From positions 44 through 64,043 of the forward strand of contig CALGNK010000027.1 in assembly GCA_937958695.1 (NCBI GenBank): a DNA stretch of 64,000 nt, given 5' to 3'. Made by a program: the position numbers and the translations under genes. A model generated the notes under the pieces. That model did no database searches, was not told where the DNA came from, and saw only the letters and a program-made list of their open reading frames with translations. Shown in pieces: positions 9,070-45,357 of this stretch. Source of the DNA: an uncultured bacterium (GTDB taxonomy: Bacteria; DUMJ01). Position 1 is the first letter of the stretch. Every line of letters starts with the position of its first letter.

Positions 9070-9484
9070 AGGAGTCAGCCTCTCTATTTATAAAATCAAG
9101 GTAACTCTGCAGGATCAGCGTAGCAGCTATCTTATCTATCAACTTTCTATCCCTCTTTCTCATCTCTCTTGCAATCCTTTCCCCCTCAACTGATGTTAGC
9201 CTCTCATCCCACATGATAATCTCTATACCCGGTATAGATTTAAGCACCTCCACCACTTTATAGAGCTCTTTAGATAGATATCCAGGAGTGCCATTCATAT
9301 TATTAGGAAATCCAATCACTATCTTACCTACTTCGTACCTCTCCACTAATCTTTCTATGCTTAATCTTAAATCTTTAAGGCCTTTATTTTCTAAGGTAGT
9401 TAGACCAAAGGCTATCCTATTATTCTCATCGCTTATAGCAAGTCCTATCCTCTTTAATCCAAAATCTATGCCTAAGTACCTCAT
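9059..9484 (-). CDS. ruvX: Holliday junction resolvase-like protein RuvX/YqgF
   Basis: MRYLGIDFGLKRIGLAISD N-terminus and about 140 aa length, typical of YqgF. Confidence 0.85.
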   Translation of the reverse strand: MRYLGIDFGLKRIGLAISDENNRIAFGLTTLENKGLKDLRLSIERLVERYEVGKIVIGFPNNMNGTPGYLSKELYKVVEVLKSIPGIEIIMWDERLTSVEGERIAREMRKRDRKLIDKIAATLILQSYLDFINREADSSSF

Positions 9485-10446
9485 ACCACCTTTATAGAAA
9501 AATCAGGACATACCTGTGCACAATAGCTACAGAGAACACACTTATCAAAGAGTATTTCTACTTTACCATTTACCAATTTTAGAGCCCCTTGACCACACCT
9601 ATCTACACAGATACCACACCCTGTACACCAAGGTTCTATCTCTATGCGTCTAGTCTTCTTCTTACTTTTCTCTAAAAGAGTCTCTTCAACTTGTAAACCG
9701 CAAAGAAGAGATACATCTAGTTTTAACTCATCTATAGTCTCTACACCTAAGAGAAATGTATGGATAAAATCTAAATCTTTTATATATCGAATAGCCCTAT
9801 CTATACTCCTTGTCAAATGCCCACCTCCAAATACTTTCATACCTATTACACCAATATTAGCATTATAGCAGTCTAACAGGGCCGATTCCATCCCCTCTCT
9901 ATCTCCATCGTATATACCGAGTCCAGCATAGTTTATAATGCTCATAACAACATCTATGAGCTCTAAGAATGCTAATACTCCTCTAACTCCACTAATCCTA
10001 TGCGTTGATATTCCAATAGCCTTTAGATCTCCCCTCTCCTTTAGTTTATGCATATACTCTAATGCCTTCATATGCCCCTTGATAGTAAGTATAGATTCCT
10101 GTTCATGTAGCATAAAGATATCTACATCACGATTCATAAGTCTCTTAGCCTTAAGAAGACTTCTATCAACATCCCTTTCATTTACCGCATAAGATTTAGT
10201 TATAACAAAAGCGTTATCAAATCCATTTAAAGATCTTCCTAATAACTCGTAATTATCATATATCTCTGCTGTGTCAAAAAGGTTTATTCCAATACTATAT
10301 GCATACAAGATTAATTCTGAGAGGTCTTTTTTACTAGTTCTATATGAGGCAAAAGGCAATGTTCCCAATGCAATATTGGAGACTAAAAGATTGCTTTTTC
10401 CCAGTCTTACCTTTCTAATAATTGAATCCTCGATAGCTTCAGCCAT
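9481..10446 (-). CDS. Aldo/keto reductase with C-terminal 2x[4Fe-4S] ferredoxin domain
   Basis: AKR-like N-terminal (NLFDTAEIYDNYELLG). C-terminal CTGCGICVDRCG and CVLCSYCAQVCP cluster motifs. Confidence 0.75.
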   Translation of the reverse strand: MAEAIEDSIIRKVRLGKSNLLVSNIALGTLPFASYRTSKKDLSELILYAYSIGINLFDTAEIYDNYELLGRSLNGFDNAFVITKSYAVNERDVDRSLLKAKRLMNRDVDIFMLHEQESILTIKGHMKALEYMHKLKERGDLKAIGISTHRISGVRGVLAFLELIDVVMSIINYAGLGIYDGDREGMESALLDCYNANIGVIGMKVFGGGHLTRSIDRAIRYIKDLDFIHTFLLGVETIDELKLDVSLLCGLQVEETLLEKSKKKTRRIEIEPWCTGCGICVDRCGQGALKLVNGKVEILFDKCVLCSYCAQVCPDFSIKVV

Positions 10447-10991
10447 ATAACTTCTCCAATACTCTCTATAATCTCTACTACTTTCTTCGGGGAGGGGTAA
10501 CCCTTCTCAAAGAGCAGTAGAACAGATAATGAATTCTTAAGATGAAAAATACCAACCTGTGTAAGCTGTTCACTAGAGTATAACCAATCCTTTAAGCCAA
10601 GATTCTTTAATCCTTCCTCTAATTTAGTTCTGTCTGTATCTCCCAGCCACTGAAAGTTGTATAATCCACCAATAATAGATTCTCCCAAATCTGAATTCTG
10701 CACAAAAAATATGTTATTCACATAAATGCCATAAGGGGCTACTCTATTTATTCGATCTTTCAAGTCTAGGCGAGGCTTTTCTAACCTTATGTCAAGTAAT
10801 TCCCTTTCTCCTTCGAAACCTACAGGTAAAGGGGGGGAAAAAGAGAACTTAGGTCTGGGATGAAATCCTTCAGTAAAACTTACCCCGATATCTGCCCTTC
10901 TAACTATCCTCTCCCAGCATCTTATCAGGTCTAAATGAGATATAAAAGCTAAAGGACCAAATTTTCTATACTCAACCCGAGCAAACACCAC
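10407..10991 (-). CDS. DUF2344 (TIGR03936-like) protein, partner of the upstream radical SAM
   Basis: FISHLDLIRCWERIVRRADIGVSFTEGFHPRPKFSF matches my recollection of DUF2344. Overlaps the upstream gene by 20 nt. Confidence 0.6.
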   Translation of the reverse strand: MVFARVEYRKFGPLAFISHLDLIRCWERIVRRADIGVSFTEGFHPRPKFSFSPPLPVGFEGERELLDIRLEKPRLDLKDRINRVAPYGIYVNNIFFVQNSDLGESIIGGLYNFQWLGDTDRTKLEEGLKNLGLKDWLYSSEQLTQVGIFHLKNSLSVLLLFEKGYPSPKKVVEIIESIGEVIWLKLSRIQLLER

Positions 10992-12684
10992 AGTTATAAC
11001 ATCCTACCTTTCTACAATCTTCTCTTTTAAAACCGGAAAGACTCAACTGATACTCATTCCAGAGAAATTCTTTACTTATCCCTGTATCTACAAAATCCCA
11101 AGGAAGAGGATCAGAAAGATTCTTCTCCTTTAGATAGGAACTGATATCGATATTATTTTCTCTAAAAGATTCTTTCCATATATCCCAGGAGAACTTATCC
11201 GTCCACGCATCAAACCTTACTCCCTTTCTCCAAGCGGTAATTATCGCCCTACTTACATCTATGTCCCCCCTAGTCAGTATACCCTCTAAAAGACTCACTT
11301 TAGGATCATGCCAACTTATATTTATCTTTCTATTTAATTTACTTTTTAATAACCTAATCTTTTCCTCTGCCTCTTCTTGGGTTATTTGCCTCGTCCATTG
11401 GAATGGGGTATGCGGCTTAGGAACAAAAAGGGAGACGCTTACATTTAAATCAATCTTTTTGTATCTACTCTTAATATCATTGAGTAAATTGGCTATACCT
11501 AAGATGTCTTCATCTTGCTCTGTTGGAAGTCCTATCATAAAGTATAGTTTTATAGCCTCCCATCCTTCTTTGGATACTATCTCCATCGTCTTAAATATAT
11601 CCTCTTCAGTAATATTCTTATTTATAACGTCTCTTAATCTTTGAGTTCCAGCCTCTGGGGCAAAGGTAAGACCTCTTTTCACTTCCCCTATAGCTTCATA
11701 AAATTCTCTAGATAAGGTATCTATCCTAAGGGATGGGATAGATACCGATACATAGGACGGAATTAATTCTTCCTTTATATATCTAGCTAAACCTTCTAAG
11801 TTGCTATAGTCGCTAGCACTTAGAGATAAGAATCCCACCTCTCCATACCCTGTAGACCTAAGTATCTCTGATGAAAGCCTCTTTATGTTATCTAAGCTCC
11901 TCTCTCTTACAGGACGATATAGAAAACCTGCTTCGCAGAATCTACATCCCCTTGTGCATCCTCTCATTATCTCCACTACCGCTCTATCATGTATGATCTC
12001 TGTATTTGGAACAAGGGGTTTAGTAGGATAAGGAGCTTTGTCTAGATCTCTAATAAATCTTTTCTTTACAGTTTTACTAATTCCAGGGACATAAATACCG
12101 CTAATCTTACTTAATGCTATTAAGAGTTCATTCTTATCTTTACTATTCAAACGCCATTCTTTAAATGTATCAATGATCTCATTAATAAGCTCTTCTCCAT
12201 CTCCAACAGCAAAACAGTCTATGAATGGAATAATTGGAGCAGGGCGAGATGCACATTGGCCTCCAGCAATAACTAAAGGAAGCCCATCCCTTTCAGAGGA
12301 CAGTAATGGTAGTCCACAGAGGTCTAGAATAGTAAGTATATTAGAATAGTTAAGTTCATAAGAGATAGAAAAAGCTAAAATATCAAATTCATTTATAGAT
12401 TTACCACTTTCCAAAGTTAGAAGGGGAATCTTTCTTCTACGTAAAAGTTCCTCCATATCTACCCAAGGGGCAAAGATTCTCTCTGCCAAGGCATCTTCTC
12501 TACTATTTATAATATGGTAGATAATAGAAAAACCAAGATTAGACATCCCTACCTCATATGTATCAGGAAAGGCGAGGACAACTTTAACCTTACCCTCTGG
12601 ATCCTTCTTTACTAAGTTATACTCATCTCCAATATAACTAGCTGGTTTCTTTACCCTGTATAAAAGGTCAAACGGATAGTTCAT
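10972..12684 (-). CDS. B12-binding-domain radical SAM protein (TIGR03960-like), rodA-linked
   Basis: N-terminal Rossmann-like region (KVVLAFPDTYEVGMSNLGF...PLVIAGG) and radical SAM cluster motif CTRGCRFC. 570 aa. Confidence 0.8.
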   Translation of the reverse strand: MNYPFDLLYRVKKPASYIGDEYNLVKKDPEGKVKVVLAFPDTYEVGMSNLGFSIIYHIINSREDALAERIFAPWVDMEELLRRRKIPLLTLESGKSINEFDILAFSISYELNYSNILTILDLCGLPLLSSERDGLPLVIAGGQCASRPAPIIPFIDCFAVGDGEELINEIIDTFKEWRLNSKDKNELLIALSKISGIYVPGISKTVKKRFIRDLDKAPYPTKPLVPNTEIIHDRAVVEIMRGCTRGCRFCEAGFLYRPVRERSLDNIKRLSSEILRSTGYGEVGFLSLSASDYSNLEGLARYIKEELIPSYVSVSIPSLRIDTLSREFYEAIGEVKRGLTFAPEAGTQRLRDVINKNITEEDIFKTMEIVSKEGWEAIKLYFMIGLPTEQDEDILGIANLLNDIKSRYKKIDLNVSVSLFVPKPHTPFQWTRQITQEEAEEKIRLLKSKLNRKINISWHDPKVSLLEGILTRGDIDVSRAIITAWRKGVRFDAWTDKFSWDIWKESFRENNIDISSYLKEKNLSDPLPWDFVDTGISKEFLWNEYQLSLSGFKREDCRKVGCYNCGVCSG

Positions 12685-13688
12685 AGATTTCTCCTCTTTC
12701 CTATAGAAGATAGAATACCTATTCCAATCATATTCACTATTAGAAAACTCCTACCATAGCTTATAAATGGTAGGGGTATACCTGCCACAGGAAGAAGTCC
12801 TATAGTCATACCTATATTTATAAACATATGTATACATAACATAGATACTATGCCAATTCCAATGAGTGTTCCACTTTCGGTATCACTCTTAAAGGAGATA
12901 TATAATCCCAAGATAAATAGTATCATAAAGAGCAAGATTACCATCACAGCACCTAAAAATCCAAACTCTTCACCAATGAGAGAAAAGATAAAATCAGTAT
13001 GCTGTTCTGGTATAAATTTTAGTCTATTCTGAGGTCCATTAAGAAGACCATAGCCAAATAAACCACCAGACCCTACAGCCAATCTAGACTGTATAATGTG
13101 ATATCCTGCACCTAGAGGGTCCCTAGTAGGTTCAAGAAATGTAAGTATCCTCTCCTTTTGATAATCCTTTAAAAGGAAATCCCAAGCTAGAGGAATACTT
13201 ATCAATCCTAGTATAGCTAAGCTTAGTAGATACTTTATATTTAGTCCAGAGATAAATATAATACAGACAAATATGGATATAAAAATTAATGCAGTCCCTA
13301 GATCTGGCTGTAAAGCAGTAATAAGGAATGGTAAAAGCGTGATAGAAAGACATGCTATAAATAATAAAAGATCTCTCCATTCCTTCTTCTTACTACTTAT
13401 AAGTGCAGACAGCTCTAAGATTAGTGCTAACTTTGCTAATTCGGAGGGCTGAAAATTAAAACCACCTATATATAACCATCTCTTAGCCCCTTTTATTGGA
13501 GATGAGATAACTAAAGTGGCACCAAGTATGACTACAGAAGCCAGATAAAAGTATGGTGCAATCTTAAGCCATAACTTATAATCTATATACCTTAGAAAGA
13601 TAACAATAGGAATAGTTAAGATTAGAGAGACAAACTGTTTATCCCAAAGTTCTGGACCTTTCCAATAGGTGGCACTATATACAGCCAA
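12681..13688 (-). CDS. rodA: SEDS-family peptidoglycan glycosyltransferase RodA
   Basis: Multipass membrane protein of the FtsW/RodA family, placed after mrdA-minCDE. The annotated N-terminus is uncertain. Confidence 0.75.
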   Translation of the reverse strand: MAVYSATYWKGPELWDKQFVSLILTIPIVIFLRYIDYKLWLKIAPYFYLASVVILGATLVISSPIKGAKRWLYIGGFNFQPSELAKLALILELSALISSKKKEWRDLLLFIACLSITLLPFLITALQPDLGTALIFISIFVCIIFISGLNIKYLLSLAILGLISIPLAWDFLLKDYQKERILTFLEPTRDPLGAGYHIIQSRLAVGSGGLFGYGLLNGPQNRLKFIPEQHTDFIFSLIGEEFGFLGAVMVILLFMILFILGLYISFKSDTESGTLIGIGIVSMLCIHMFINIGMTIGLLPVAGIPLPFISYGRSFLIVNMIGIGILSSIGKRRNL

Positions 13689-25395: not shown

Positions 25396-25809
25396 TTATA
25401 ACACATTCCTAGGATTGCTAGGTGGATAGAGAGTTTGACCTGAAGTACTATCTTCAACCTCTACTCCTCTTGGAACAGCTAAAAAAACATAATCTCCAAC
25501 TTTCTGTAAATTCCCTTCCAAGGCATATACTGCACCGCTTACAAAATCTAAAGCCCTTACTGCTTCACTTCTATCAGCAGATTCAAAATTAACCACTACT
25601 ATCTTACCTGCCTTAACTTCATCTATAACCCTTCTAACTTCATCATAGTTATTCAGTCCATATATAAATACAGTAACCGTTTCTCGCTCCTTAGAAGATA
25701 TAGAAAATATACCTTTACGGATCTTTTTATCTGACTCTAAATCAAGGAAATCTTCTTCTTCGTCTATAATTCCAAACATCCTCTTAAAAAAATTTCCTAT
25801 TCTAGACAT
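25396..25809 (-). CDS. sepF: Cell division protein SepF
   Basis: 137 aa. ...VFIYGLNNYDEVRRVIDEVKAGKIVVVNFESAD... is the SepF core. Confidence 0.8.
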   Translation of the reverse strand: MSRIGNFFKRMFGIIDEEEDFLDLESDKKIRKGIFSISSKERETVTVFIYGLNNYDEVRRVIDEVKAGKIVVVNFESADRSEAVRALDFVSGAVYALEGNLQKVGDYVFLAVPRGVEVEDSTSGQTLYPPSNPRNVL

Positions 25810-25868: not shown

Positions 25869-27041
25869 TTAATCTACAAACAAAAGCTCACCTTTATTTA
25901 TATTATCTATAACTACCTCCTTCTCATTCCCTCCCAAGATATCAACGAATCTTTTCTCTATAGAGTTACTGTTAACTACATAGACAAAGTATCTATCCCC
26001 TTCTTGTTTTATCAGACTTTTAGGCACTACTAAACCCTCTATAGTTCCGACATTTATATTTAATGAAACATACTTTGGTCCTATATAGTAAGAACTCTTT
26101 ATCTTACATAACCACAGCTCCTTAGGATACTTACTTATCCATTTGATAAATTCGATACTTACACCTTTTCCATCTAAATTTAACTTATAATTATTATGCT
26201 CAATAGGGGATTTACCATCAAGGGATACTTCAAGAAGGATGAATTGTTCCAAGTTATCGATAACCTTAGCAATAACTTCTCCCTTTCTAACAGAATCACC
26301 ATCATTTATAACTTTAGATTCCTTTAGAAGGGAATCTACATTTATATTATCTCCAACTCCTTTTTCTATTATAGTACTTCTTACATCCTCCCTGCTATCT
26401 ATGCTAAAAGAAACTAACCCCGAAGTATCAGATATTACTTTGATATTAGAGGATATTGCATTCTGCCTCAAACTGGCCAGTTTACTTAACTTTTCTTCTT
26501 TTAATACCTTTAGCTCCTTTGTTAAATTTGTTATTTCACCCTTTAAAGAATTAATTCTGCTATTTAACTCACCAATTCTAATCAAAACTTCAGCAATGTC
26601 CTGTTTATTTGCAACTAGACTGTTTAGGAGTTTACTCTCTTTATTTAAATCATTATAAATCTCTTCTATCTTTTTTTTCTTATCTGTTATTACATTATTC
26701 TTTTCCTTTATAATGTCATCATAGTAAGATATTACACTATCAACCTCTCTGGTATAATTTTTATAATCCTCAGTAGTTGGAAAGATAATAGCTATAGTAT
26801 CCCCTTTTGCTATCCTTGTAGAATTATCCTTCACCCTCATTATTATCCCGCTTACTGGACTTTCTATAACCCTTTCTCTATAGAGCACCACCCCCTTAGC
26901 ACTAACAATCCTTTGAATAGTCTGAGAGGAAGGAGAAAATGTCTCTAGGGTATACTCCCATACATTAGGTTGAACAAAGCATATATAAGCAATTATACCG
27001 ATAAAGATTCTAGTCAATGTAGTCTTAAATATTCCTTTCAT
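25869..27041 (-). CDS. HlyD-family membrane-fusion-like protein (TM anchor, long coiled coil, lipoyl-like and beta-barrel domains), no cognate transporter adjacent
   Basis: N-terminal TM. SPVSGIIMRVKDNSTRIAKGDTIAIIF (lipoyl-like). About 120-aa K/E-rich coiled coil. C-terminal ...RYFVYVV...VIDNINKGELLFVD, typical of HlyD adaptors. Confidence 0.55.
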   Translation of the reverse strand: MKGIFKTTLTRIFIGIIAYICFVQPNVWEYTLETFSPSSQTIQRIVSAKGVVLYRERVIESPVSGIIMRVKDNSTRIAKGDTIAIIFPTTEDYKNYTREVDSVISYYDDIIKEKNNVITDKKKKIEEIYNDLNKESKLLNSLVANKQDIAEVLIRIGELNSRINSLKGEITNLTKELKVLKEEKLSKLASLRQNAISSNIKVISDTSGLVSFSIDSREDVRSTIIEKGVGDNINVDSLLKESKVINDGDSVRKGEVIAKVIDNLEQFILLEVSLDGKSPIEHNNYKLNLDGKGVSIEFIKWISKYPKELWLCKIKSSYYIGPKYVSLNINVGTIEGLVVPKSLIKQEGDRYFVYVVNSNSIEKRFVDILGGNEKEVVIDNINKGELLFVD

Positions 27042-28417
27042 ATCTCGATAAACTCTATTGGCCTAAATGGAGTAAACGCACTCCTTAACAAAGTTTTTAA
27101 ATCCCTATCTATAATTAATGGTAATAAACTTCTACCTCCTTTAGAGAGTGCCATTTCCAAAAGAGATTCCCTAATACTGGCAATAGTAACCTTAATCCTC
27201 TCTCCTCTAAGTATATCTATAACCTGCCTCTTCTGTTCTTCTAACTCTTTTCTAGTAATAGAATTGTATGAGGCAAGTGGGGTAAAAGGTTTTGGAATAA
27301 GGGGTTGAAAATTAAAAGACACATTTGTCTTATAATACTTTAAGAGTTTATCAATTTTTTCTTTAAAATTCTTTAATGAGCTAATCTCTAAGTCGTAGTC
27401 TCCATAACCGAATATCATATAAAACTTTATATTCTTAAATCCAAGTTTAAAGGATGTTTCAAGTACATCTAATAACTTTTCATTACTCTCCCTTTTACCA
27501 ATAGAAAATCTTATATCCTCGTTTATAAATTCTGGGGCTAAGGTTATAGAAGTTTCTCCTGCCAATCTTAAGAGCTCAAGAAACTCTTCGTCCAAGGTTG
27601 ATATTCTTAGGGATGCAACGCTTACCTTCATTCCTTCTTCTATCAACCATCTAAGTAGGTCTTTTATATAAGGAACACCACCTACTAGTGGACCCATAAG
27701 TCCAACCTTTGAATAGATATCCCTATAGCAAGATATAAGTCTCTTTACAACCTCTATAGATTTTATCCTGCAGGGAAGGTATATATTTCCTGCAACACAA
27801 AACTTACAACCCATCGGACAACCTCTCTCTATCTCTATGAGGAACATATCACCAAAAACCGTATCTACAGATCTTACACAACTGTAAGCGGTTTCTCTAT
27901 CAAAATCTTTAAAGACCCTTCTCTTTATCTTCCTAGGCAAACCTTCAACTATGGGTTTTCCGTCAGAGTAGAATCTTGGTATATAAATACCTTCTATGTT
28001 GGCAAAAGATAATAAGAGTTCTTCCCTTGACTTTACCGAGTCTTTAACTTCTATATACCTATTAAGGATCTCTATTATAGCATCTTCTCCTTCTCCTATA
28101 AGAATAAGATCAAAGACATCTGCCAATGGTTCAGGATTATATGTTAGACAGATACCTCCTCCTACTACTAGTGGACAGGAAAGCTCTCTCTCTTTAGCTA
28201 GTATAGGAATAGAAGACCTTTTAAGGATTTCTATTACGTTAAAATAATCTAATTCGTAAGAGAGAGAAACGCCTAAGACATCATATTCATCTATATTCTT
28301 AAGGGATTCTATAGAGACAGGAGGAAGGTCTCCTTGGGGAAGAAATATCCTATGACAGGAGAAATATGGATTTTCATTAATAAGCCTATATAGTAGGTGT
28401 AGGGCAAGACTTGACAT
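27038..28417 (-). CDS. B12-binding-domain radical SAM protein, shorter paralog of the 10972-12684 gene
   Basis: CPMGCKFC cluster motif. Blockwise similarity to the rodA-linked paralog (DVLGVSLSYELDYFNVIEIL / DILAFSISYELNYSNILTIL; SLRISTLDEEF / SLRIDTLSREF). Confidence 0.75.
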   Translation of the reverse strand: MSSLALHLLYRLINENPYFSCHRIFLPQGDLPPVSIESLKNIDEYDVLGVSLSYELDYFNVIEILKRSSIPILAKERELSCPLVVGGGICLTYNPEPLADVFDLILIGEGEDAIIEILNRYIEVKDSVKSREELLLSFANIEGIYIPRFYSDGKPIVEGLPRKIKRRVFKDFDRETAYSCVRSVDTVFGDMFLIEIERGCPMGCKFCVAGNIYLPCRIKSIEVVKRLISCYRDIYSKVGLMGPLVGGVPYIKDLLRWLIEEGMKVSVASLRISTLDEEFLELLRLAGETSITLAPEFINEDIRFSIGKRESNEKLLDVLETSFKLGFKNIKFYMIFGYGDYDLEISSLKNFKEKIDKLLKYYKTNVSFNFQPLIPKPFTPLASYNSITRKELEEQKRQVIDILRGERIKVTIASIRESLLEMALSKGGRSLLPLIIDRDLKTLLRSAFTPFRPIEFIEI

Positions 28418-28563
28418 CCCTACACTGTAAGAATTAGGGTATACTAAACCAAAAGAATACTCCTTTACCTTAGGTTTTAAACCTACCTCTTTCTCCCTTA
28501 TCTTCTCTATATAACTTCTATACTTCCAGTTAATAGACGTAGTAGATATCTACCTCTCTATGC

Positions 28564-29592
28564 TCACTTCCTTAAGAATGGAGGTATGTCTAAGGCATCT
28601 AAAGAAACTTTAGATAACTCAATTCCCTCTTTCTTTAATGTCCTTCTAACCTTAGAGTCAAAACCTGTAGCTATTACTGTCACCTTTATCTTTCCTTCCA
28701 TCTTTTCATCTATGACTGCTCCAAACTTTATGTTAGCATCGCTATCTGCTACTTTAGATATTACCTCTGCCGCTTCATAAACCTCTGTTAGAGTAAGGTC
28801 TGGACCACCCGTAACATTGAATAGTATCCCTTTAGCTCCATCAATCTTATCTTCAAGGAGAGGATTTGATATAGCCTTAGAAGCAGCTTCCGTTGCCCTC
28901 TGCTCTCCAGAAGCTTCTCCTATTCCCATTATAGCAGACCCTGAATTTTCCATAATAGTCCTTACATCTGCAAAGTCTGGATTTATGATACCTGGAGTTA
29001 CAATAATGTCTACTATACCTTGAACACCTGCCTTAAGAACCTCATCAGCCATTTTAAAGGCTTCTATCATAGTAGTAGTTTTGGTACTTATAGAAAGAAG
29101 CTTATCATTAGGAATCACAATAAGTGCATCTACTTTACCTTTCAGCTCTTCTATGGCTTTCTCCGCAACTAACATCCTCCGCCTTCCTTCAAAAGAGAAT
29201 GGTTTAGTAACTATGGCTACAGTAAGAATCTTAGCCTCTTTCGAAAGTTGTGCAATAATCGGAGAAGCTCCACTTCCAGTTCCTCCACCCATACCTGCAG
29301 TAATAAATACCATATTAGCTCCTTCTATAGCTAGCATTATATCCTCTTTGCTTTCCTCTGCAGCCTGTCTTCCAATCTCAGGGTCAGCACCAGCTCCTAA
29401 TCCTTTCGTAAGTTCTGCACCTATCTGTATCTTTCTCTCCGCCTTAGAACGGCTCAGAACTTGTAAATCTGTATTTACTGCTATAAACTCTACCCCCTTA
29501 AGACCGGACTCTATTATCCTATCTACCGCATTTACTCCCCCACCACCAACACCTATGACCTTTATAGTTGCAGGGCTATTCGTATCACTCAT
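28564..29592 (-). CDS. ftsZ: Cell division GTPase FtsZ
   Basis: GGGTGSG tubulin signature, and N-terminal [14 protein letters not shown]. Confidence 0.9.
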
Positions 29593-31188: not shown

Positions 31189-31910
31189 TATTCTTTCACC
31201 TTAGCATGCTTAAGTGAAATACTGCCTTCATAAGGTGGAAGATCTATTGAATCGCTCTTTTCTACCTTCAGTATAATACCATACTCTTTAGATATATAAC
31301 TCAACGCCGAGACTATCCCTCCAGGCATATTAATAGCATTCAGTAGAGAATCGGGATTTCCAATAGCCTTTATCTGATAAGGTGGAGATAATCTTACTCC
31401 ATTTACTAGTATAGTGGTACCTACACATCTAATCTCACTAGTTACCGCTATCCTTTGGTCATTTATAGCTATAGCCTCTGCACCAGATGCCCATAGCTCA
31501 TTTACAACTTCTCTTAAGTCGTAGTCGTGAATTATATAATTTTCTGGATTCTCCCCTACTTTTATCTTTTTTTTACTGTCATCTAAGGTTATAATGACCC
31601 CAGGGCCATTAACTGGCAATAAACCTGCCCATAACTTTACTCTATTAAGTTCTTTTAACATTCCTTCTAAAACAGTCTTCTCCCTAGCTGAAGATTCTTC
31701 GTACTGTCTAATCTGCTCTCTTAGAGTATTTATCTCTTGTATAAGCTCATTCCTCTGAGCTTCAAGCTTTTCTACTAGATTTATAAGTTGCTCATTTCTC
31801 ATGCTAAATAATGTATATTTAGGGGATTCATAAAATTTTATCTGGGTAACAGATAACAGCCCTATTATGAAACATACTATAGATAATGCCCAAACAGCCT
31901 TATTACTCAT
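31188..31910 (-). CDS. DUF881 family protein (YlxW/YlxX-like)
   Basis: N-terminal TM, coiled coil, and a GPG-containing C-terminal domain. Conserved dcw position between divIB and sbp. Confidence 0.6.
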   Translation of the reverse strand: MSNKAVWALSIVCFIIGLLSVTQIKFYESPKYTLFSMRNEQLINLVEKLEAQRNELIQEINTLREQIRQYEESSAREKTVLEGMLKELNRVKLWAGLLPVNGPGVIITLDDSKKKIKVGENPENYIIHDYDLREVVNELWASGAEAIAINDQRIAVTSEIRCVGTTILVNGVRLSPPYQIKAIGNPDSLLNAINMPGGIVSALSYISKEYGIILKVEKSDSIDLPPYEGSISLKHAKVKE

Positions 31911-32353
31911 TTATCCTTCGATTCTCCTTCTAATATGGTAGGAAATCTCAAGCTTCTCACATCAATCTCTCTGATCTTTATGCCCTTTTCTCTAGCAGTA
32001 TTTAATATCTTTAATGTCAAATCTAATTTTCTATTTAGATTATTTAAATCTCCTAGTCTACAAGATATATCATTATAAAGTATAACATAAACTTCATCGT
32101 CTTTTATCTCTATCTTCTTTAGTAATGGAAGTTTCGTCTTAGGTAATTCCCTCTCTAGAATAGACATAACCATATTTTTCTTAGATAAAGGATAAACTTG
32201 AATCTTATCTAAAGCCAGATCATACTCTTCTCTTAGACTATACAGGTTTATATTCAACTTTATATCCTTCATTGGACTATTAATTCCCCATACCCCAGCA
32301 GTAACTGTAACAACTGTCAAAAACCATATAACCATTTCATATCTAGAACCCAA
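31907..32353 (-). CDS. Short FtsQ/DivIB-like cell division protein
   Basis: 148 aa with an N-terminal TM and a beta-domain-like C-terminus. Occupies the ftsQ slot after murB. Lacks an obvious full POTRA region. Confidence 0.45.
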   Translation of the reverse strand: MGSRYEMVIWFLTVVTVTAGVWGINSPMKDIKLNINLYSLREEYDLALDKIQVYPLSKKNMVMSILERELPKTKLPLLKKIEIKDDEVYVILYNDISCRLGDLNNLNRKLDLTLKILNTAREKGIKIREIDVRSLRFPTILEGESKDK

Positions 32354-35600: not shown

Positions 35601-36805
35601 TCGCCTACCACCTCTGTTCTATATCTAGAGACCCCTAAAGCATACCCTATCATAAAAAGAGATACAATCCTAGAAGTGCCACCAGAACTAAGTAACGGAA
35701 GTGGGATTCCGGTAATAGGAAGCAATTTAATAACTCCGCCTATGTTGATTATCGCTTGAATAGTTAGACTGAGAGCAAATCCCAATACTACAAATCTAGA
35801 AAATTTAAATGGACAATGTAAACCTATCTCAAACATCCTTACACAGATAAGGGAGTATAATAATACTATAAAGATGGTAATAAGAAGACCAAATTCTTCT
35901 CCTATATGGGCAAGAATAAGGTCTGTATGGATTTCTGGTAATACATTCAATTTCTGTTGTCCCATGCCTAATCCTACACCTAAAAGTCCTCCTCTGGCAA
36001 AAGCACGTAAAGCTTGTATATACTGATAACCATCCCCATATGGATCCTTCCAAGGGTCTAGAAAAGCCAAAAATCTCCTTTCTCTATAAGAGGCGGTAAA
36101 TATAAGCCTATAGCCTAAAAATACAGAGCCAGTAAATATAGATAAAAACATTGTTAGAGGCATTCCGGCTGAGAATACCATCAGTAAAGAGGTCAAGAAG
36201 GTTATCATTGCACTACCATAATCTGGTTGAGAGAGAATCATACAGGTAAAAACGAGTATAACAGTAAGAATTTTAAGCATGGTAAAATTCCAACCCATAT
36301 GCTCTTTTGTAAGGACGTTACTTATATAGAGTATAATGGCTAATCTAGCAATATCACTAGTCTGAACAGATATTCCTCCCATACGTAGCCACCTAACTCC
36401 ACCCCTTGAGGAAGAACCCCAGAGAAGAGTCATTATAAGAAGCAAGAGGGCAATATAGAGAAAGTATGTGGCATATATACGAAGAAATCTAAGTTTCATC
36501 CTATAAGCTATTATTCCAGCTATAATTCCCAATACAGAATAAACTAACTGAGATCTAAAGGATACATCAGAATATCCCATAGTAGCGATCTGAATCCTCT
36601 CTATAGAATAAAGTGCAATTATACCTAAAACAAGTAAAATACAAGAGCTAATCAAAAGGATCCAATCTATTTCCGCATTAAACTTTACTACTTTTCCATA
36701 TATAGACAATCTCTTTAAATCTCTCTCCCCTCTCAGCATAGTTTTTAAACATATCAAAACTGGCACAAGCAGGACTAAAAAGTATACAGTCCCCCTTTTT
36801 GGCAC
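35597..36805 (-). CDS. ftsW: SEDS-family division glycosyltransferase FtsW/SpoVE
   Basis: Polytopic FtsW/RodA-family protein between murD and murG. The start is probably the inner Met (MLRGERD...). Confidence 0.8.
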   Translation of the reverse strand: MPKRGTVYFLVLLVPVLICLKTMLRGERDLKRLSIYGKVVKFNAEIDWILLISSCILLVLGIIALYSIERIQIATMGYSDVSFRSQLVYSVLGIIAGIIAYRMKLRFLRIYATYFLYIALLLLIMTLLWGSSSRGGVRWLRMGGISVQTSDIARLAIILYISNVLTKEHMGWNFTMLKILTVILVFTCMILSQPDYGSAMITFLTSLLMVFSAGMPLTMFLSIFTGSVFLGYRLIFTASYRERRFLAFLDPWKDPYGDGYQYIQALRAFARGGLLGVGLGMGQQKLNVLPEIHTDLILAHIGEEFGLLITIFIVLLYSLICVRMFEIGLHCPFKFSRFVVLGFALSLTIQAIINIGGVIKLLPITGIPLPLLSSGGTSRIVSLFMIGYALGVSRYRTEVVGE

Positions 36806-38018
36806 TATCTATGGCGGTCAAGACAGCCTCTTCTAAAGAAGTATGGATAGAAAAATTCTCAATACTATTTTCTAAAAGGAGCTTTTTTAGCTTCTCCCTA
36901 GTCTCACCTATAAGACAAATATGTCTTACGTTAGTTTGTCTTAGTTCATCGATCAACTCTGAAAAGTCCATGCCCTTATCCTGTCCACCTAAGATAAGGA
37001 CTTTATTTTCATTGATACTCCTTAAAGCACTTATAGTAGCATGAGGATTAGTAGCCTTAGAATCGTCTATAAAAGTAAGTCCACCATACTCAAGAAATTT
37101 CTCTAAAGTGTGCGGATATGGACTGAAAGTCTCTATTGCTCTTATCAAATCATCCAGAGGAATACCACACAACAGCCCTATAGTGCTAGCACACATTATA
37201 TTGGCAAGATTATGTTTACCTATAAGTCTTATATTATCTAATGGGATAGAAACATCAGAAAACTCTTCTATATTAAACTTTATATTTCCATCTTTTACAT
37301 ATACTTCGCTTTTGTCTGTATCTTCAAGAGAAAAAGATATCTTTCTACTTTTGGCATCTCTTACCGCTTCCACAACGTTAATATCGTCTCTATTGTAAAT
37401 CAGTATCTCCTCATTCCCTTGATTATAAAATATCCGCCTTTTAGCCTCTACATATTCTTCTATACTATTATGCCAATTTAAATGGTCACTTGCAATATTT
37501 AGCAATACTCCTATCTTAGGTCTAAAGAGCTTAGTTCCCTGAAGCTGAAAACTACTTACCTCTAATACAAAATATTCAGGTCTAGAATCAATTACTTCTC
37601 CAATAAATGGAATCCCTATATTCCCAACTAACTTTACATTCTTTTTAGTGGATAAGATGTGGGTAGTCAAAGATGTAGTAGTTGTTTTCCCATTCGTTCC
37701 TGTAATAGCTATAATGGGGACATCAGTAAGGCGGTAAGCTAATTCTATCTCACTTATAACCTCGATACCCTTATTTCTAGCTCTTTCTAAAAATAATTCA
37801 TTCCATCTTACCCCTGGACTTACAATTATAAGATCTGAATCCAATATAAATCCTTCGGTATGTCCCCCAAGTTCTACTTCTACCCCATCTGGAACAGTCA
37901 GATCTTCTTTTTTTTCTGAAAGCTTTACTCTTGCTCCTAGCCTCAATAAGGTTTTGACACAAGCCTCACCTGTTTTTCCATAACCTATTACTGTTACACA
38001 TTTACCTTTTAAATCCAT
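36678..38018 (-). CDS. murD: UDP-N-acetylmuramoylalanine-D-glutamate ligase
   Basis: IAITGTNGKTTTTSL P-loop. 446 aa. Confidence 0.85.
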   Translation of the reverse strand: MDLKGKCVTVIGYGKTGEACVKTLLRLGARVKLSEKKEDLTVPDGVEVELGGHTEGFILDSDLIIVSPGVRWNELFLERARNKGIEVISEIELAYRLTDVPIIAITGTNGKTTTTSLTTHILSTKKNVKLVGNIGIPFIGEVIDSRPEYFVLEVSSFQLQGTKLFRPKIGVLLNIASDHLNWHNSIEEYVEAKRRIFYNQGNEEILIYNRDDINVVEAVRDAKSRKISFSLEDTDKSEVYVKDGNIKFNIEEFSDVSIPLDNIRLIGKHNLANIMCASTIGLLCGIPLDDLIRAIETFSPYPHTLEKFLEYGGLTFIDDSKATNPHATISALRSINENKVLILGGQDKGMDFSELIDELRQTNVRHICLIGETREKLKKLLLENSIENFSIHTSLEEAVLTAIDSAKKGDCILFSPACASFDMFKNYAERGERFKEIVYIWKSSKV

Positions 38019-38949
38019 TTATAAATACCCCCATAATACCAGCTAACAGAGTTAATAAGGAGAACCTTGTAACAACCTGTGGTTCGCTCCATCCTGAAAG
38101 CTCAAAATGATGATGAAGAGGGCTCATCTTAAATATTCTCTTTCCAGTAAGCTTAAAGTATGATACCTGAAGTATTACGGAGAGATTCTCAAGTATAAAT
38201 ATAATGCCTAGTATAATAATAAACCATTCTTTACCAAGCGCTACTCCTATCCCAGCCACGCTAGCTCCAAGGGATAAAGAACCTATATCGCCCATAATAA
38301 GCCTAGCTGGATGGGCATTATAGAAGAGAAATACTAGTAAGCCTCCAAGAATGGCTAAAGAGAACGCTATTACATTGAAATCCTTAAAAATCAGTAAAAC
38401 AAAAAATAGCAAGATAGTTATAATAGTTCCAGCTAAACCATCTACCCCATCTGTAAAGTTTACTCCGTTTGCTATACCCACTATAAATACCGTTTCCAAT
38501 AGATACTGCCAAAAGGTATCACCTGAGCGAAAGATAAGAAAGTCTCCCTTTAACTCAAAGATACCAAACCTTCTAATCATCCAGAGCCAAAAGAGTGTAA
38601 TGGTACATTCTGCTATAAACTTGTACCTACCCTTCAATGGTTGGGATGACCTTCTCTTTATCCCTGCATAGTCATCTATCCCGCCTATAACTGCGTAACC
38701 CGTTATTAAGGATAGTAGAGCCATTATTTCTCGTGTGGGGTATAGAATCAATAGTGTCAGTAAAGTACTTAAGAATATGACAAGTCCACCCATAGTTGGA
38801 GTCCCTTCTTTAGTTAAATGCGACTTAGGACCATAATCCCTTACATGTTTAGGAAGCAGAGACCTAAAATACTTTAAATAGAGCTTAAATCCAACTATAC
38901 TAAGAGTTAGCGAAAGAAAAAGGGTAAATATACATCTAGTGCTTATCAT
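38002..38949 (-). CDS. mraY: Phospho-N-acetylmuramoyl-pentapeptide transferase
   Basis: 315-aa polytopic membrane protein of the MraY/WecA family in the canonical dcw slot. Confidence 0.9.
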   Translation of the reverse strand: MISTRCIFTLFLSLTLSIVGFKLYLKYFRSLLPKHVRDYGPKSHLTKEGTPTMGGLVIFLSTLLTLLILYPTREIMALLSLITGYAVIGGIDDYAGIKRRSSQPLKGRYKFIAECTITLFWLWMIRRFGIFELKGDFLIFRSGDTFWQYLLETVFIVGIANGVNFTDGVDGLAGTIITILLFFVLLIFKDFNVIAFSLAILGGLLVFLFYNAHPARLIMGDIGSLSLGASVAGIGVALGKEWFIIILGIIFILENLSVILQVSYFKLTGKRIFKMSPLHHHFELSGWSEPQVVTRFSLLTLLAGIMGVFINGFKR

Positions 38950-40408
38950 TTATCCTCCTCTTAATAGCTTCTAAAGCCACCTCTCTATCATCAAAGTGGA
39001 TAGTTATATCTTTAAATATCTGATATGTCTCGTGTCCTTTACCAGCTATTACTACAATATCTCCAGGCTCTGCCATATTAATAGCACAATTAATTGCCTC
39101 TTTCCTATCCTCTTGTATGATATAGTTATCCTTCTCTACTCCACTAATTATATCTTCTATGATCTTTGCAGGGTCTTCACTGCGGGGATTATCAGAGGTA
39201 ATGATAGCAAAATCGGATAACCTAGTTGCTATATCTCCCATAATAGGTCTCTTAGTCTTATCCCTATCTCCTCCACATCCAAATACAACTATGACTCTTC
39301 TCCCCAAAGACTTAGCTACTTTAAGAACCCTCTCTAGTGCATCTGGAGTATGGGCATAATCTACTAAAACCTGAAATTGCTGTCCCAAATCTATGCGTTC
39401 TAACCTACCCCTTACAGGGTTAAATTCACAAACAGTTCTTAGTACCGTATTCATAGGAATTCCTACTTTATAGGAGTAACCAATAGCTGAAAGGATGTTA
39501 TATACATTTATCTCTCCTAAAAGCTTAGACTTTACCTTAAAATGTTCACCTTCTAGAATAAGATCAAAAGACAAACCATCTTTAGACACCTCTATATTTT
39601 TAGCAGTTATTAGAGCAGGTTCTCTTATACCATAAGTAATAGGATGCTTATCCCGGAATTCTTCAACTAATCTCTTACCATATGGATCATCAACATTTAT
39701 TACCATAATACCATTTTCTTCCTTTGAAACCATTTCAAATAGACGTCTTTTAGCACTAAAATATGATTCCATATCCTTATGAAAGTCTAGATGATCTTGG
39801 GTAAGATTGGTAAAGACACCTCCCTCAAAATAGACCGCATCCACTCTATGTTGAACAAGGGCATGAGAGGATATCTCCATCACAATCCTTTCTATACCTA
39901 ATGTTCTAGCCTTATCATATAGTTTAGCCAAGAGTAATTGTTCAGGAGTTGTAAAATTGGTAGGAAGATCCTCATCATATAGTCTAGCGCCTAGAGTACC
40001 TATTATGCCAATCTTCTCTCCATTAGCCTCTAAGATCTTGCCAATAAGATTTACGGTAGTAGTTTTACCATTGGTACCAGTAACACCGACAGTCTTTATG
40101 AGCCTAAACGGATTTCCATAGAAATTACTGCTTATAAAGGCGTATGCCTTCTTACTGTCTGAAACCCTTATATAAGGAAAATTTCCTGTCAATTCTTCTT
40201 CTCCTACTGTTACTATTGCCCCATTTGCAATAGCCTCTTCTATAAAGGAATGACCATCAAATTTCTCTCCTTTTAATGCTATAAACATATAATTTTTCTT
40301 AATATCCTTAGAATTACTACTAATACCTTCTATCTCTGTCCCATCTAGACTCTCTATATTTCTAATATCTACTATTTCCACATTCTCTATTAACTTTACT
40401 AGCTTCAT
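38936..40408 (-). CDS. murE: UDP-MurNAc-tripeptide synthetase MurE
   Basis: VGVTGTNGKTTTVNL P-loop. 490 aa. Confidence 0.85.
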   Translation of the reverse strand: MKLVKLIENVEIVDIRNIESLDGTEIEGISSNSKDIKKNYMFIALKGEKFDGHSFIEEAIANGAIVTVGEEELTGNFPYIRVSDSKKAYAFISSNFYGNPFRLIKTVGVTGTNGKTTTVNLIGKILEANGEKIGIIGTLGARLYDEDLPTNFTTPEQLLLAKLYDKARTLGIERIVMEISSHALVQHRVDAVYFEGGVFTNLTQDHLDFHKDMESYFSAKRRLFEMVSKEENGIMVINVDDPYGKRLVEEFRDKHPITYGIREPALITAKNIEVSKDGLSFDLILEGEHFKVKSKLLGEINVYNILSAIGYSYKVGIPMNTVLRTVCEFNPVRGRLERIDLGQQFQVLVDYAHTPDALERVLKVAKSLGRRVIVVFGCGGDRDKTKRPIMGDIATRLSDFAIITSDNPRSEDPAKIIEDIISGVEKDNYIIQEDRKEAINCAINMAEPGDIVVIAGKGHETYQIFKDITIHFDDREVALEAIKRRINDKH

Positions 40409-44481: not shown

Positions 44482-45357
44482 ATGGAAGATTACTTAGTAA
44501 AGGCTGCATCTAATGATTTATCCTTTACAGTAAGTATAGCCATAACTACAGAACTTGTAGAAAAAGCCCGAGAGGTCCATGAGACTAGTAAACTAGCTAC
44601 AGCTGCATTGGGAAGAGCCTTAAGTCTTGTTGGAATAATGGGAACAGAGTTAGAGGGCAAACAAACAGTGAGTCTTCAAATCATATCCAATGGACCACTA
44701 AAGGGGCTATTTGTTCAATCTGACGCAAGTGGAAACGTTAGGGGATATATAAAGAATCCATATATAGAACTGCCACCAAACGAGATAGGTAATATTGACG
44801 TAGAAAGCGGAATAGGGAAATCAGGTTATCTATATATAGTAAAAGATTTAGGATTTGGAAGTCCATACATAGGTATCACTCCTCTTATAAAAGGCGGTAT
44901 AGCAACAGATTTAGCTCATTACTTTTATACATCAGAGCAGACACCTTCAGTAGTAGCAGCTGGAGCCTATATAGGACCTAGCGGCAGGGTTGAAGCTTCA
45001 GGAGGAATGATTGGACGTATACTACCAGGGACAGCAATAGATAAAATAGAATTATTAGAGAAAAGGTTAGAAAAACTTCCTCCGTTAAGCGAACTCATAC
45101 GGGAGTTTGAATCTATAGAATCAATATTGAAGATAATCTTTGAAGATATACCCTATATAATACTGGAGAAGAGAAGTATAAGGTATCACTGTCCCTGTTC
45201 TAGGGAACGAGCTAAGACTACACTAATACTTTTAGGAAAAGATGAACTTTCCTCTATAATAGAAGAAGGCTCTGCAGAGGTAACCTGTGTTTTCTGCGGA
45301 AGAAGATACTATTTTGATAAAGAGGAATTAGAAGAGATATTAGCATCTATCGAGTAA
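44482..45357 (+). CDS. hslO: Redox-regulated chaperone Hsp33
   Basis: C-terminal zinc centre HCPCSRE...CVFCGRRY. 291 aa. Confidence 0.85.
   Translation: MEDYLVKAASNDLSFTVSIAITTELVEKAREVHETSKLATAALGRALSLVGIMGTELEGKQTVSLQIISNGPLKGLFVQSDASGNVRGYIKNPYIELPPNEIGNIDVESGIGKSGYLYIVKDLGFGSPYIGITPLIKGGIATDLAHYFYTSEQTPSVVAAGAYIGPSGRVEASGGMIGRILPGTAIDKIELLEKRLEKLPPLSELIREFESIESILKIIFEDIPYIILEKRSIRYHCPCSRERAKTTLILLGKDELSSIIEEGSAEVTCVFCGRRYYFDKEELEEILASIE

Follow-up and report, generated by a model that had tools for sequence, protein, structure and literature searches.

A radical SAM enzyme with a probable non-canonical start and a transporter-less adaptor-fold protein between ftsZ and sepF in an uncultured bacterial lineage, and the links of both families to sepF

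Background

SepF is essential or important for cell division in Firmicutes, Actinobacteria, Cyanobacteria and archaea. Published accounts of the ylm/sepF gene cluster list ylmD and ylmE, sepF, ylmG and ylmH, divIVA and ileS (PMC8136486, PMC13584725), and neither of these accounts mentions the two gene families treated here, a radical S-adenosylmethionine (SAM) enzyme and a protein of the HlyD_2 adaptor family. Both are encoded between ftsZ and sepF in a 64,000-nucleotide (nt) stretch of contig CALGNK010000027.1 (assembly GCA_937958695.1) from an uncultured bacterium; this whole stretch is called the window below, and all positions without a locus name refer to it. A first-pass annotation of the window, made from the sequence alone, had taken the pair for an insertion into an interval that in Firmicutes normally holds ylmC/D/E or sporulation sigma genes, and for a second copy of a radical SAM/DUF2344 module linked to rodA in which the partner protein had been swapped.

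Several known systems resemble the pair. On the enzyme side they are proteins of the NCBIfam family TIGR03960 (rSAM_fuse_unch; cutoff 462.3 bits, 605-position profile), and on the adaptor side they are the adaptors of tripartite pumps (AcrA, MexA, MacA, EmrA, HlyD), which combine a four-part fold with an N-terminal membrane anchor and, in Gram-negative bacteria, carry the TolC-docking motif R-x3-L-x6-S (PMC3391258). Literature searches on DUF2344, TIGR03960, TIGR03936, PF10105, PF19864, TIGR02828 and PF26018 returned no relevant paper, and none was found that names both sepF and HlyD; a radical SAM protein that appears in a CRISPR interference paper on C. difficile is a different one, with PDZ and DUF512 domains. 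In this study we compare the locus with its relatives. We find that the pair is conserved throughout its own lineage, that relatives of each gene lie near sepF in distant lineages, and that the radical SAM gene has no canonical start codon at its likely beginning in most of the genomes compared.

Results

The ftsZ-sepF interval and its conservation

Two open reading frames (ORFs), both on the minus strand, sit in the ftsZ-sepF interval of the window, and the coordinates, shared direction and 4-nt overlap first assigned to them were confirmed. The features are as follows.

28564-29592, minus strand: ftsZ, 342 amino acids (TIGR00065, 420 bits; Tubulin and FtsZ_C domains), the upstream neighbour of the radical SAM gene
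27038-28417, minus strand: radical SAM ORF as called, 459 amino acids, from the ATG at 28417
27038-28534, minus strand: likeliest coding sequence of the radical SAM gene, 498 amino acids, from an ATT start candidate
27797-27820, minus strand: CPMGCKFC, the CxxxCxxC motif for the radical SAM [4Fe-4S] cluster, seen in the sequence
27038-27041, minus strand: ATGA, the 4-nt overlap of the radical SAM stop and the adaptor-like start, seen in the sequence
25869-27041, minus strand: adaptor-like ORF, 390 amino acids (Pfam HlyD_2, PF12700, 84.9 bits against a cutoff of 25.1)
25396-25809, minus strand: sepF, 137 amino acids (PF04472, 84.5 bits), directly downstream of the adaptor-like gene

Because the stop and start codons of the pair overlap, translational coupling of the two genes is likely. 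The adaptor-like gene has no Shine-Dalgarno (SD) sequence of its own, its best SD duplex reaching just -3.0 kcal/mol, and the same junction is overlapping or abutting in the relatives. A 59-nt gap separates the adaptor-like gene from sepF, which has a strong SD of its own (duplex -10.7 kcal/mol). A scan of the pair found fewer promoter-like sites than in shuffled sequences and no terminator between the two genes, nor does a promoter or terminator signal set the pair apart from ftsZ and sepF.

Nine representatives of the lineage were compared, namely the window and the loci L001, L004, L007, L009, L010, L011, L013 and L015. The order ftsA-ftsZ-radical SAM-adaptor-hisS-aspS, with sepF between the adaptor-like gene and hisS, is found in all nine, while identity to the window falls as low as 55% for the radical SAM protein and 34% for the adaptor-like protein. 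Some 22 database clusters match the radical SAM protein at 55-100% identity, after which identity drops abruptly to 37%. Homologues of the adaptor-like protein are very few and all from unclassified metagenome-assembled genomes (MAGs): among 1.84 billion representative proteins searched exhaustively with HMMER, three had E<1e-30 and the next match scored 76 bits, and a contig scan with the adaptor alignment yielded only five close relatives, since both of its peptide patterns were specific to the lineage. Every relative examined keeps the pair beside ftsZ and sepF, so that a strain-specific insertion, one of the outcomes named at first as speaking against a division-associated pair, can be rejected. 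The two genes stand side by side, directly after ftsZ and without ylmE, only in the lineage of the window.

The host had been assumed to belong to the Firmicutes, and the content of its division and cell wall (dcw) cluster is indeed Firmicutes-like (DUF881, DUF1290, SepF), but the carriers of the pair are uncultured MAGs, of which one relative was deposited as a Dictyoglomi/Dictyoglomota bacterium and the others as plain 'bacterium', so that this premise is not supported.

Relatives of the adaptor-like protein beside sepF

Outside the lineage the best matches to the adaptor-like protein are full-length, colinear HlyD_2 proteins of 400-430 amino acids with 17-29% identity. Those with names come from Tepidanaerobacteraceae, Thermoanaerobacterales, Thermosediminibacterales, Clostridiisalibacter and Bacillota MAGs, and their best NCBIfam match is TIGR02828, at 32-89 bits and in every case below the cutoff. 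The window protein behaves likewise, TIGR02828 being its best NCBIfam match at 39.3 bits against a cutoff of 154.4.

A metagenome scan with two peptide patterns taken from five related sequences retrieved 80 loci, whose HlyD_2 proteins form 24 clusters at 50% identity and whose GC content ranges over 25-52%. Downstream sequence of 2 kb or more is available for 50 of these loci, and in all 50 sepF lies 0.3-1.4 kb downstream of the HlyD_2 gene; every one of the 60 sepF ORFs found is on the same strand as that gene. Pfam scans of the cluster representatives give as the commonest order HlyD_2, YlmE (YggS-type), SepF, YGGT (YlmG), YlmH and DivIVA; in 12 loci HlyD_2 directly precedes SepF, as it does in the window. 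Upstream of the Clostridia-type HlyD_2 genes the content varies (miaA, gpsA, spoIVA or a gene of the methionine gamma-lyase family, PF06838), while the downstream ylmE-sepF is constant. No homologue of the radical SAM gene occurs in any of the 80 loci, and among 593 ORFs around 77 of the related HlyD_2 genes none carries a Walker A motif together with LSGGQ, the signature of an ATP-binding cassette (ABC) ATPase.

The window protein shares with these Clostridia proteins, besides colinearity, the motifs G(I/L)VSFxxD..E and (F/A)K(I/V)IDN, the position upstream of sepF and the absence of a nearby transporter. It differs from them as a very divergent, lineage-restricted branch that has the radical SAM gene before it and sepF directly after it, without ylmE. 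With its link to sepF, no adjacent transporter and, in the window protein, no TolC-docking motif at the hairpin tip (see below), this adaptor-fold family thus belongs with the sepF operon and is probably no ordinary efflux component.

Relatives of the radical SAM enzyme and the rodA-linked copy

The window contains a second radical SAM gene, in the rodA-linked module that the first-pass annotation had pointed out and that is indeed present.

10407-13688, minus strand: rodA (FTSW_RODA_SPOVE, 338 bits), a canonical TIGR03960 radical SAM gene (570 amino acids, 685.7 bits) and a DUF2344/TIGR03936 gene (112 bits), used here as the module for comparison

Homology between the two radical SAM proteins of the window extends over 478 residues (32% identity, E 9e-69, 219 bits), and the two loci are alike in superfamily, in the two-domain layout, in following immediately on a morphogenetic gene (rodA or ftsZ) and in overlapping the downstream partner. 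They differ in the N-terminus, in the partner, which is DUF2344 at rodA instead of an adaptor fold, and in a C-terminal cysteine motif kept only by the rodA-linked copy. A profile search with TIGR03960, which had been suggested as a check on family membership, gave 258 bits for the 459-residue call and 277 bits for the 498-residue version, over profile positions 28-512 only; with scores this far short of the 462.3 bits required, the ftsZ-linked enzyme lies outside TIGR03960 by NCBI's cutoff. It has no TIGR03936/DUF2344 fusion or neighbour, DUF2344 accompanying the rodA-linked copy only. DUF2344 is overlapped by the next gene downstream (9481-10446, minus strand), whose product, an aldo/keto reductase with a 2x[4Fe-4S] ferredoxin domain at its C-terminus, could be a redox partner of the rodA-linked radical SAM protein.

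The best matches of the ftsZ-linked enzyme outside the lineage are TIGR03960 proteins of about 580 amino acids, mostly from Negativicutes (Pelosinus, Sporomusa, Dendrosporobacter, Lucifera), with 33-37% identity and about 300 bits. They pass the TIGR03960 cutoff narrowly, at 495-517 bits, yet are likewise without DUF2344. Five of their genomic contexts (L097-L101), picked across neighbour-joining subclusters, were inspected, and in all five the radical SAM gene stands directly before ylmD (Cu-oxidase_4), for example at 7001-9573 of L098. In three contexts ylmE, sepF and proC come next, and in a fourth ylmE-sepF follows 4.7 kb on, so that sepF is less than 5 kb from the radical SAM gene in four of the five; in L098, where the contig continues, ylmH and divIVA are also seen. 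Upstream lie a PRC-domain gene resembling ylmC (3/5), nrdR and nrdD (4/5) and an nrdG-like gene (3/5). The literature searched held no description of the pairing of this enzyme with ylmD.

The ftsZ-sepF clade and the ylmD-linked group agree in layout, in their position upstream of sepF-region genes, in the place of the initiator (for the ftsZ-sepF clade, the favoured candidate) two residues before an invariant tryptophan and in the N-terminal signature x-W-K...YxFGLVYPN, where the rodA-linked protein has ..PASYIGDEYN... They differ in that the ylmD-linked proteins start with ATG, keep the C-terminal motif Cx4Cx2Cx2C together with Cys256 and Cys299, and are followed by ylmD and not by an adaptor-like gene. 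BLAST scores from the ftsZ-sepF clade are about 300 bits to the ylmD-linked and about 219 bits to the rodA-linked proteins, those between the latter two groups being about 330 bits, and in a neighbour-joining tree the ftsZ-sepF clade forms a single long monophyletic branch. On these comparisons the ftsZ-linked enzyme represents a divergent branch with a shortened C-terminus, and its nearest kin, too, are encoded in the sepF region.

Since relatives of both families sit by ylmD or ylmE-sepF elsewhere, the earlier statement of what the ftsZ-sepF interval normally holds is incomplete, and to call the pair 'inserted' is misleading: both genes have relatives that are habitual sepF/ylm neighbours, as the radical SAM-ylmD (5/5) and HlyD_2-sepF (50/50) counts indicate.

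Domains, cysteines and fold of the radical SAM enzyme

The enzyme matches Radical_SAM_N2 with 144.7 bits and Radical_SAM (PF04055) with 55.4 bits against a cutoff of 29.5, in a layout of an N-terminal Rossmann-like Radical_SAM_N2 domain followed by the AdoMet-radical core. It had been described as a radical SAM protein of the B12-binding type, of which the radical SAM domains and CPMGCKFC stand, while the Pfam B12-binding match is sub-threshold (23.3 vs 32.1 bits). An AlphaFold2 model with a predicted local distance difference test (pLDDT) of 92.3 matches MgmA, TsrM, AprD4, MiaB, OxsB and RimO in Foldseek (E 1e-16 to 1e-9, TM 0.5-0.7). These best structural matches share only 12-16% identity with the window protein, and they include enzymes that bind cobalamin (MgmA, TsrM, OxsB) and enzymes that do not (AprD4, MiaB). 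A sequence search of the PDB found no chain at E<0.01.

Cysteines were compared in an alignment of 34 homologues, 18 canonical TIGR03960 proteins and 16 members of the ftsZ-sepF clade, with numbering on the 503-residue translation from the ATA at 28549. The three cluster cysteines of CPMGCKFC are invariant in all 34, and the ftsZ-sepF clade keeps these along with Cys65 and Cys134. A C-terminal four-cysteine motif (Cx3-4Cx2Cx2C, including Cx4Cx2Cx2C) is present in 18/18 canonical proteins and 0/16 members of the clade, which is also without Cys256 and Cys299 and has an invariant Cys260 of its own; members of the clade end at a PW.FI motif, which is P-x-EFIEI in the window protein. Because the four-cysteine motif and two further cysteines are lost and one invariant cysteine is gained, the chemistry of the enzyme has probably diverged from that of its TIGR03960 relatives.

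Start site of the radical SAM gene

The coding region of the radical SAM gene runs upstream of the called start at 28417, to about 28534 or 28549.

28418-28549, minus strand: in-frame 5' extension of the radical SAM ORF, 44 codons back to the TAG at 28552-28550, without ATG, GTG or TTG; its translation ends ..INWKYRSYIEKIREKEVGLKPKVKEYSFGLVYPNSYSVG-M and covers a helix and the first beta-strand of the N-terminal domain
28553-28558, minus strand: SD-like GAGAGG (anti-SD duplex -7.4 kcal/mol), followed by the TAG and then ATA

The corresponding extension lies at 6493-6624 in L001 and in L004, 8493-8624 in L007, 8472-8624 in L009, 8481-8621 in L010, 7860-8000 in L011 and 7878-8000 in L015, and at the SD-like site relatives have AAGGGG-TAG-ATA or GGGAGGTGAT. 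In L001, L010 and L011 the ftsZ stop codon abuts the extension in frame. The extension is clearly coding, because in each of the nine lineages the stretch from the codon two before the invariant tryptophan to the annotated methionine measures exactly 39 codons and shows no insertions or deletions, because pairwise differences among the nine at codon positions 1/2/3 number 427/331/634 with frequent synonymous changes, and because the AlphaFold2 model places a confident helix at residues 8-20 and a strand at 31-37 (pLDDT >87; residues 1-5 <50). Seven of the nine lineages have no canonical start before the last two codons of the extension.

Two start candidates were considered. The first, candidate (a), is the codon two before the tryptophan, in the window the ATT at 28534-28532; seven lineages have ATT, ATC or ATA there, one has TTG and one has CTG. 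It is the only candidate found in all nine lineages, and 61 of 98 close TIGR03960 relatives begin M-[ST]-W exactly at this position. Its spacing from the SD is 16-18 nt in three lineages where it was measured and about 12 nt in a fourth, against the 3-9 nt typical of strong-SD genes in the window. Candidate (b), the ATA at 28549-28547 directly after the SD-TAG, has a spacing nearer the typical and is in frame in five of the nine lineages. From the comparison with relatives we favour candidate (a), and whichever candidate is used, initiation appears to be non-canonical in most lineages. In L013, where candidate (a) is TTG, the call for the database protein P0032 begins 12 codons downstream, at a GTG. 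The database entries inspected for the enzyme (458-462 amino acids) start at an internal methionine and omit the 39-44-codon extension, apart from a fragment at a contig edge and a few longer calls that use internal start codons; entries mis-called in this way are without a core beta-strand.

The E. coli infC gene (AUU) is an example of initiation at a codon other than AUG, GUG or UUG. The radical SAM gene resembles such genes in having a near-cognate codon (AUU, AUC, AUA or CUG) at the ancestral initiator position, and differs from them in that its initiation is read from comparison only. Candidate (a) lies 29 nt past the ftsZ stop in the window and 15-29 nt past it across the nine lineages, a distance that suggests low-level expression coupled to the translation of ftsZ; termination-reinitiation is an alternative mechanism, since the start would lie so close behind the stop of a presumably well-translated gene.

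Two other accounts of the missing start were rejected, and a hairpin that might mend the SD spacing was looked for. A fusion of FtsZ to the enzyme by readthrough or frameshifting is out because the frame of the radical SAM gene relative to ftsZ differs among lineages (0, 1 or 2); stop-codon reassignment is out, all other ORFs of the window reading normally under table 11; as to a hairpin that would bring the SD nearer the ATT, the GTAGAT/ATCTAC palindrome of the window has a 4-bp version in L007 and is not conserved in L001, L004 and L009.

Fold of the adaptor-like protein and the missing transporter

The HlyD_2 match of the adaptor-like protein spans residues 11-380 and positions 18-387 of the 416-position profile. 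Its AlphaFold2 model (pLDDT 84.1) has an N-terminal transmembrane helix at residues 2-23 followed by the lipoyl-like, alpha-hairpin, beta-barrel and membrane-proximal domains of the adaptor fold, the hairpin (residues 90-198) consisting of two helices of about 55 and 49 residues. In Foldseek the model matches AcrA, MacA, MexA and EmrA over its full length, with E down to 1e-13 and 10-16% identity; a PDB search with the adaptor profile found only weak MacA and coiled-coil matches, and a match to Peptidase_M23 is weak (19 bits, cutoff 28.7).

The statement that this protein has no ABC or resistance-nodulation-division (RND) partner was borne out for its surroundings: no gene for an ABC, RND, major facilitator superfamily or TolC-type protein was found among the window ORFs scanned against Pfam, and the sequence flanking the lineage loci, for up to 8-10 kb in either direction, holds no transporter gene. 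The hairpin tip (residues 144-150) carries an invariant motif.

26583-26618, minus strand: LNSLVxNKQDI, in the region of residues 142-153 of the adaptor-like protein

This is among the most conserved stretches of the protein in 14 sequences with overall identities down to 34%, and it suggests a conserved binding partner at the tip. R-x3-L-x6-S is absent from the tip, the sole match to [RK]x3Lx6[ST] being far off, at residue 187. The window protein thus has the four-part fold and membrane anchor of the pump adaptors and differs from them in having no adjacent inner-membrane transporter in any lineage, no RLS motif and low sequence identity.

Genomic surroundings

The pair belongs to an uninterrupted, co-directional morphogenesis supercluster of about 33 kb on the minus strand (10407-43592) that runs from mraZ to DUF2344.

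Supercluster, part 1, minus strand: mraZ, rsmH, a DivIC-like gene, a penicillin-binding protein (PBP) gene, murE, mraY, murD, ftsW, murG, murC, murB
Part 2, minus strand: a short ORF in the FtsQ position, DUF881, DUF1290, ftsA, ftsZ, the radical SAM gene, the adaptor-like gene, sepF
Part 3, minus strand: hisS, aspS, an RnfB-like (ferredoxin) gene, apbE, a gene for a heptaprenyl-diphosphate-synthase-I-like membrane protein (Hpre_diP_synt_I), maf
Part 4, minus strand: mreB, mreC, mreD, PBP2, minC, minD, rodA, the TIGR03960 radical SAM gene, DUF2344

The block from hisS to maf is embedded between sepF and mreB, and the same block is kept in the loci of all relatives. The dcw part has murE, mraY and murD at 36678-40408 (minus strand) without murF between murE and mraY, and no second Mur ligase was seen among the scanned window ORFs. 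The ORF in the FtsQ/DivIB position (31907-32353, minus strand) encodes only 148 amino acids and has no Pfam match at E<0.001; its counterparts in relatives are 146-153 amino acids long, likewise with no Pfam match on record.

Several genes elsewhere in the window were also recorded. At the window edge, on the strand opposite to the morphogenesis cluster, lies a gene for an 850-residue DUF499 protein, preceded by an overlapping 187-residue ORF without Pfam match; the two (78-3190, plus strand) may be part of a defence-type island. A 949-residue fusion of LPG_synthase_TM, a PMT_2 glycosyltransferase and a polysaccharide deacetylase (45347-48196, minus strand) is followed by a 541-residue ORF without Pfam match. 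Adjoining secA are a 1216-residue protein with tetratricopeptide repeats, DUF3857, a transglutaminase core and DUF3858 (56523-60173, minus strand) and a 358-residue protein whose sole Pfam match is an N-terminal SEC-C motif (61337-62413, minus strand).

Discussion

We favour, with moderate confidence, the view that the radical SAM enzyme and the adaptor-like protein are an accessory pair of SepF-dependent division or septal envelope biogenesis, and that the enzyme is translated from a non-canonical start coupled to ftsZ. A role of this kind is the most likely one because each family is linked to sepF/ylm genes elsewhere, independently of the other, and the division-associated function proposed at first remains plausible. 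It is from gene order that we infer the division role; the expression logic and a physical link between the two proteins are likewise proposals, whereas what is observed concerns the genes present, their folds and synteny, the linkage of both families to sepF and the lack of a canonical start.

The pair would have been inherited vertically inside the dcw cluster of an uncultured lineage. The enzyme, whose two-domain layout resembles that of class-B-like radical SAM enzymes, would be cytoplasmic and would hold a [4Fe-4S] cluster at CPMGCKFC, the reductive cleavage of SAM yielding a 5'-deoxyadenosyl radical that acts on a substrate. It would be translated from a start other than AUG, GUG or UUG just past the ftsZ stop, and thus at a low level tied to ftsZ, and translation of the adaptor-like protein would follow by coupling. 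The latter is predicted to be a single-pass membrane protein with an extracytoplasmic adaptor fold and may serve the septal envelope in a structural or coupling role, not as a drug-efflux adaptor. By analogy with EnvC and PcsB, whose coiled-coil hairpins engage the MacB-type ABC system FtsEX, it may be the partner of a division-type MacB-family ABC system such as FtsEX.

Several points weigh against this reading. Gene order alone is no proof, and the conserved block also holds hisS, aspS, the RnfB-like gene and apbE, which are not division genes. The two families occur apart elsewhere, the enzyme in 0/80 HlyD_2 loci and HlyD_2 in 0/5 of the radical SAM loci, and there is no obvious way in which a cytoplasmic enzyme and a largely extracytoplasmic protein would act on each other. 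The samples are biased, in that the 80 HlyD_2 loci were retrieved by patterns from five related sequences and the five radical SAM contexts represent one subgroup of about 580 amino acids, mostly from Negativicutes. The literature searches found nothing on either family. As to the start, the SD spacing points to the ATA, in frame in five of the nine lineages, and the relatives point to the codon two before the tryptophan, 16-18 nt off the SD.

A wider form of the favoured reading is that both families are unrecognised and widely distributed components of SepF-dependent division, in Negativicutes (the enzyme), in Clostridia (the adaptor) and jointly in this Dictyoglomota-like lineage, with the enzyme carrying out a radical modification required at the septum, the adaptor joining the cytoplasmic membrane, where the cell divides, to the wall or outer envelope, and dosage set by ftsZ-coupled non-AUG initiation. 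We regard this wider form as possible, though on balance unlikely. In published reports, proteins of the YlmD/YfiH family are described both as enzymes that edit peptidoglycan precursors (PMC8844914, PMC12280929) and as purine nucleoside enzymes with multiple functions (PMC6978800); it may be speculated that the purine nucleoside activity of YlmD clears by-products of the radical SAM enzyme, ylmD itself not being in the window.

The alternative that survives best, though we think it unlikely to be right, is neutral hitchhiking in a rigid housekeeping supercluster, in which the enzyme would modify something unrelated to division, for instance an RNA, a cofactor or a lipid, while the adaptor-like protein would serve general envelope transport. 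The same embedded genes, together with Maf, fit this alternative in having no known role in division, as do the structural neighbours of the enzyme, MiaB and RimO being RNA or protein methylthiolation enzymes and MgmA a protein methylation enzyme. The inertia of a single cluster, however, hardly explains why two unrelated families should each lie beside sepF/ylm genes in distant lineages whose neighbouring genes otherwise differ. Upstream of the Clostridia-type HlyD_2 the genes vary, and ylmE-sepF downstream stays constant.

We judge it improbable that the adaptor-like protein belongs to a split efflux or secretion system, as the adaptor of an ABC, MacB-type or RND pump with a TolC-like channel, all encoded elsewhere. 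The complete adaptor fold with its best matches in AcrA, MacA, MexA and EmrA agrees with such a system, as does the database label of the relatives, 'HlyD family efflux transporter periplasmic adaptor subunit', and cultured Dictyoglomus is diderm, with TolC, HlyD and ABC genes elsewhere in the genome (PMC5167688). Against this, the scanned window ORFs and the lineage flanks hold no transporter gene, the 593 ORFs around related genes hold no ABC signature, and the TolC-docking motif is absent from the hairpin tip. Many of the relatives, moreover, come from Clostridia-class Firmicutes, which are monoderm and without TolC.

Still less probable is that the locus is a recent second copy of the rodA-linked TIGR03960/DUF2344 module with DUF2344 replaced by the HlyD-like protein, the origin suggested in the first-pass annotation. 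The homology of the two enzymes of the window and their parallel placement after a morphogenetic gene had made it attractive, but the ftsZ-linked enzyme scores lower against its genomic sibling than against ylmD-linked proteins of other phyla (219 vs about 300 bits), its N-terminal signature is of the ylmD-linked type and unlike that of the sibling, its clade is old and forms a long branch, and its HlyD_2 partner has an independent history beside sepF.

Finally, that the radical SAM gene has lost its start codon and is decaying as a pseudogene, with only the adaptor-like gene functional, accords with the want of ATG, GTG or TTG in the conserved 5' region of seven lineages and with the lost C-terminal cysteine motif, but is highly improbable given a frame that is intact, free of indels and without internal stops in each of the nine lineages, changes concentrated at third positions, invariant radical SAM cysteines, a model with a pLDDT of 92 and, in L013, a TTG at the favoured start position.

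Conclusions

The ylm-cluster neighbours of sepF are mostly poorly understood, and to them two families can be added, one of radical SAM enzymes and one of adaptor-fold proteins without a transporter. At present both carry generic annotations, 'B12-binding radical SAM' and 'HlyD family efflux adaptor', and for the adaptor family the efflux annotation is probably misleading. What is new is that both families are linked to sepF across distant lineages; a further point of interest is the probable non-canonical start of the radical SAM gene, seen through most of the lineage of the window. Because relatives are found in named and possibly cultivable groups (Pelosinus, Sporomusa, Thermoanaerobacterales, Clostridiisalibacter), the idea of a division role is testable, and if either protein does act in division, radical SAM chemistry, or a protein of the membrane fusion protein fold, would for the first time be tied to the SepF divisome.

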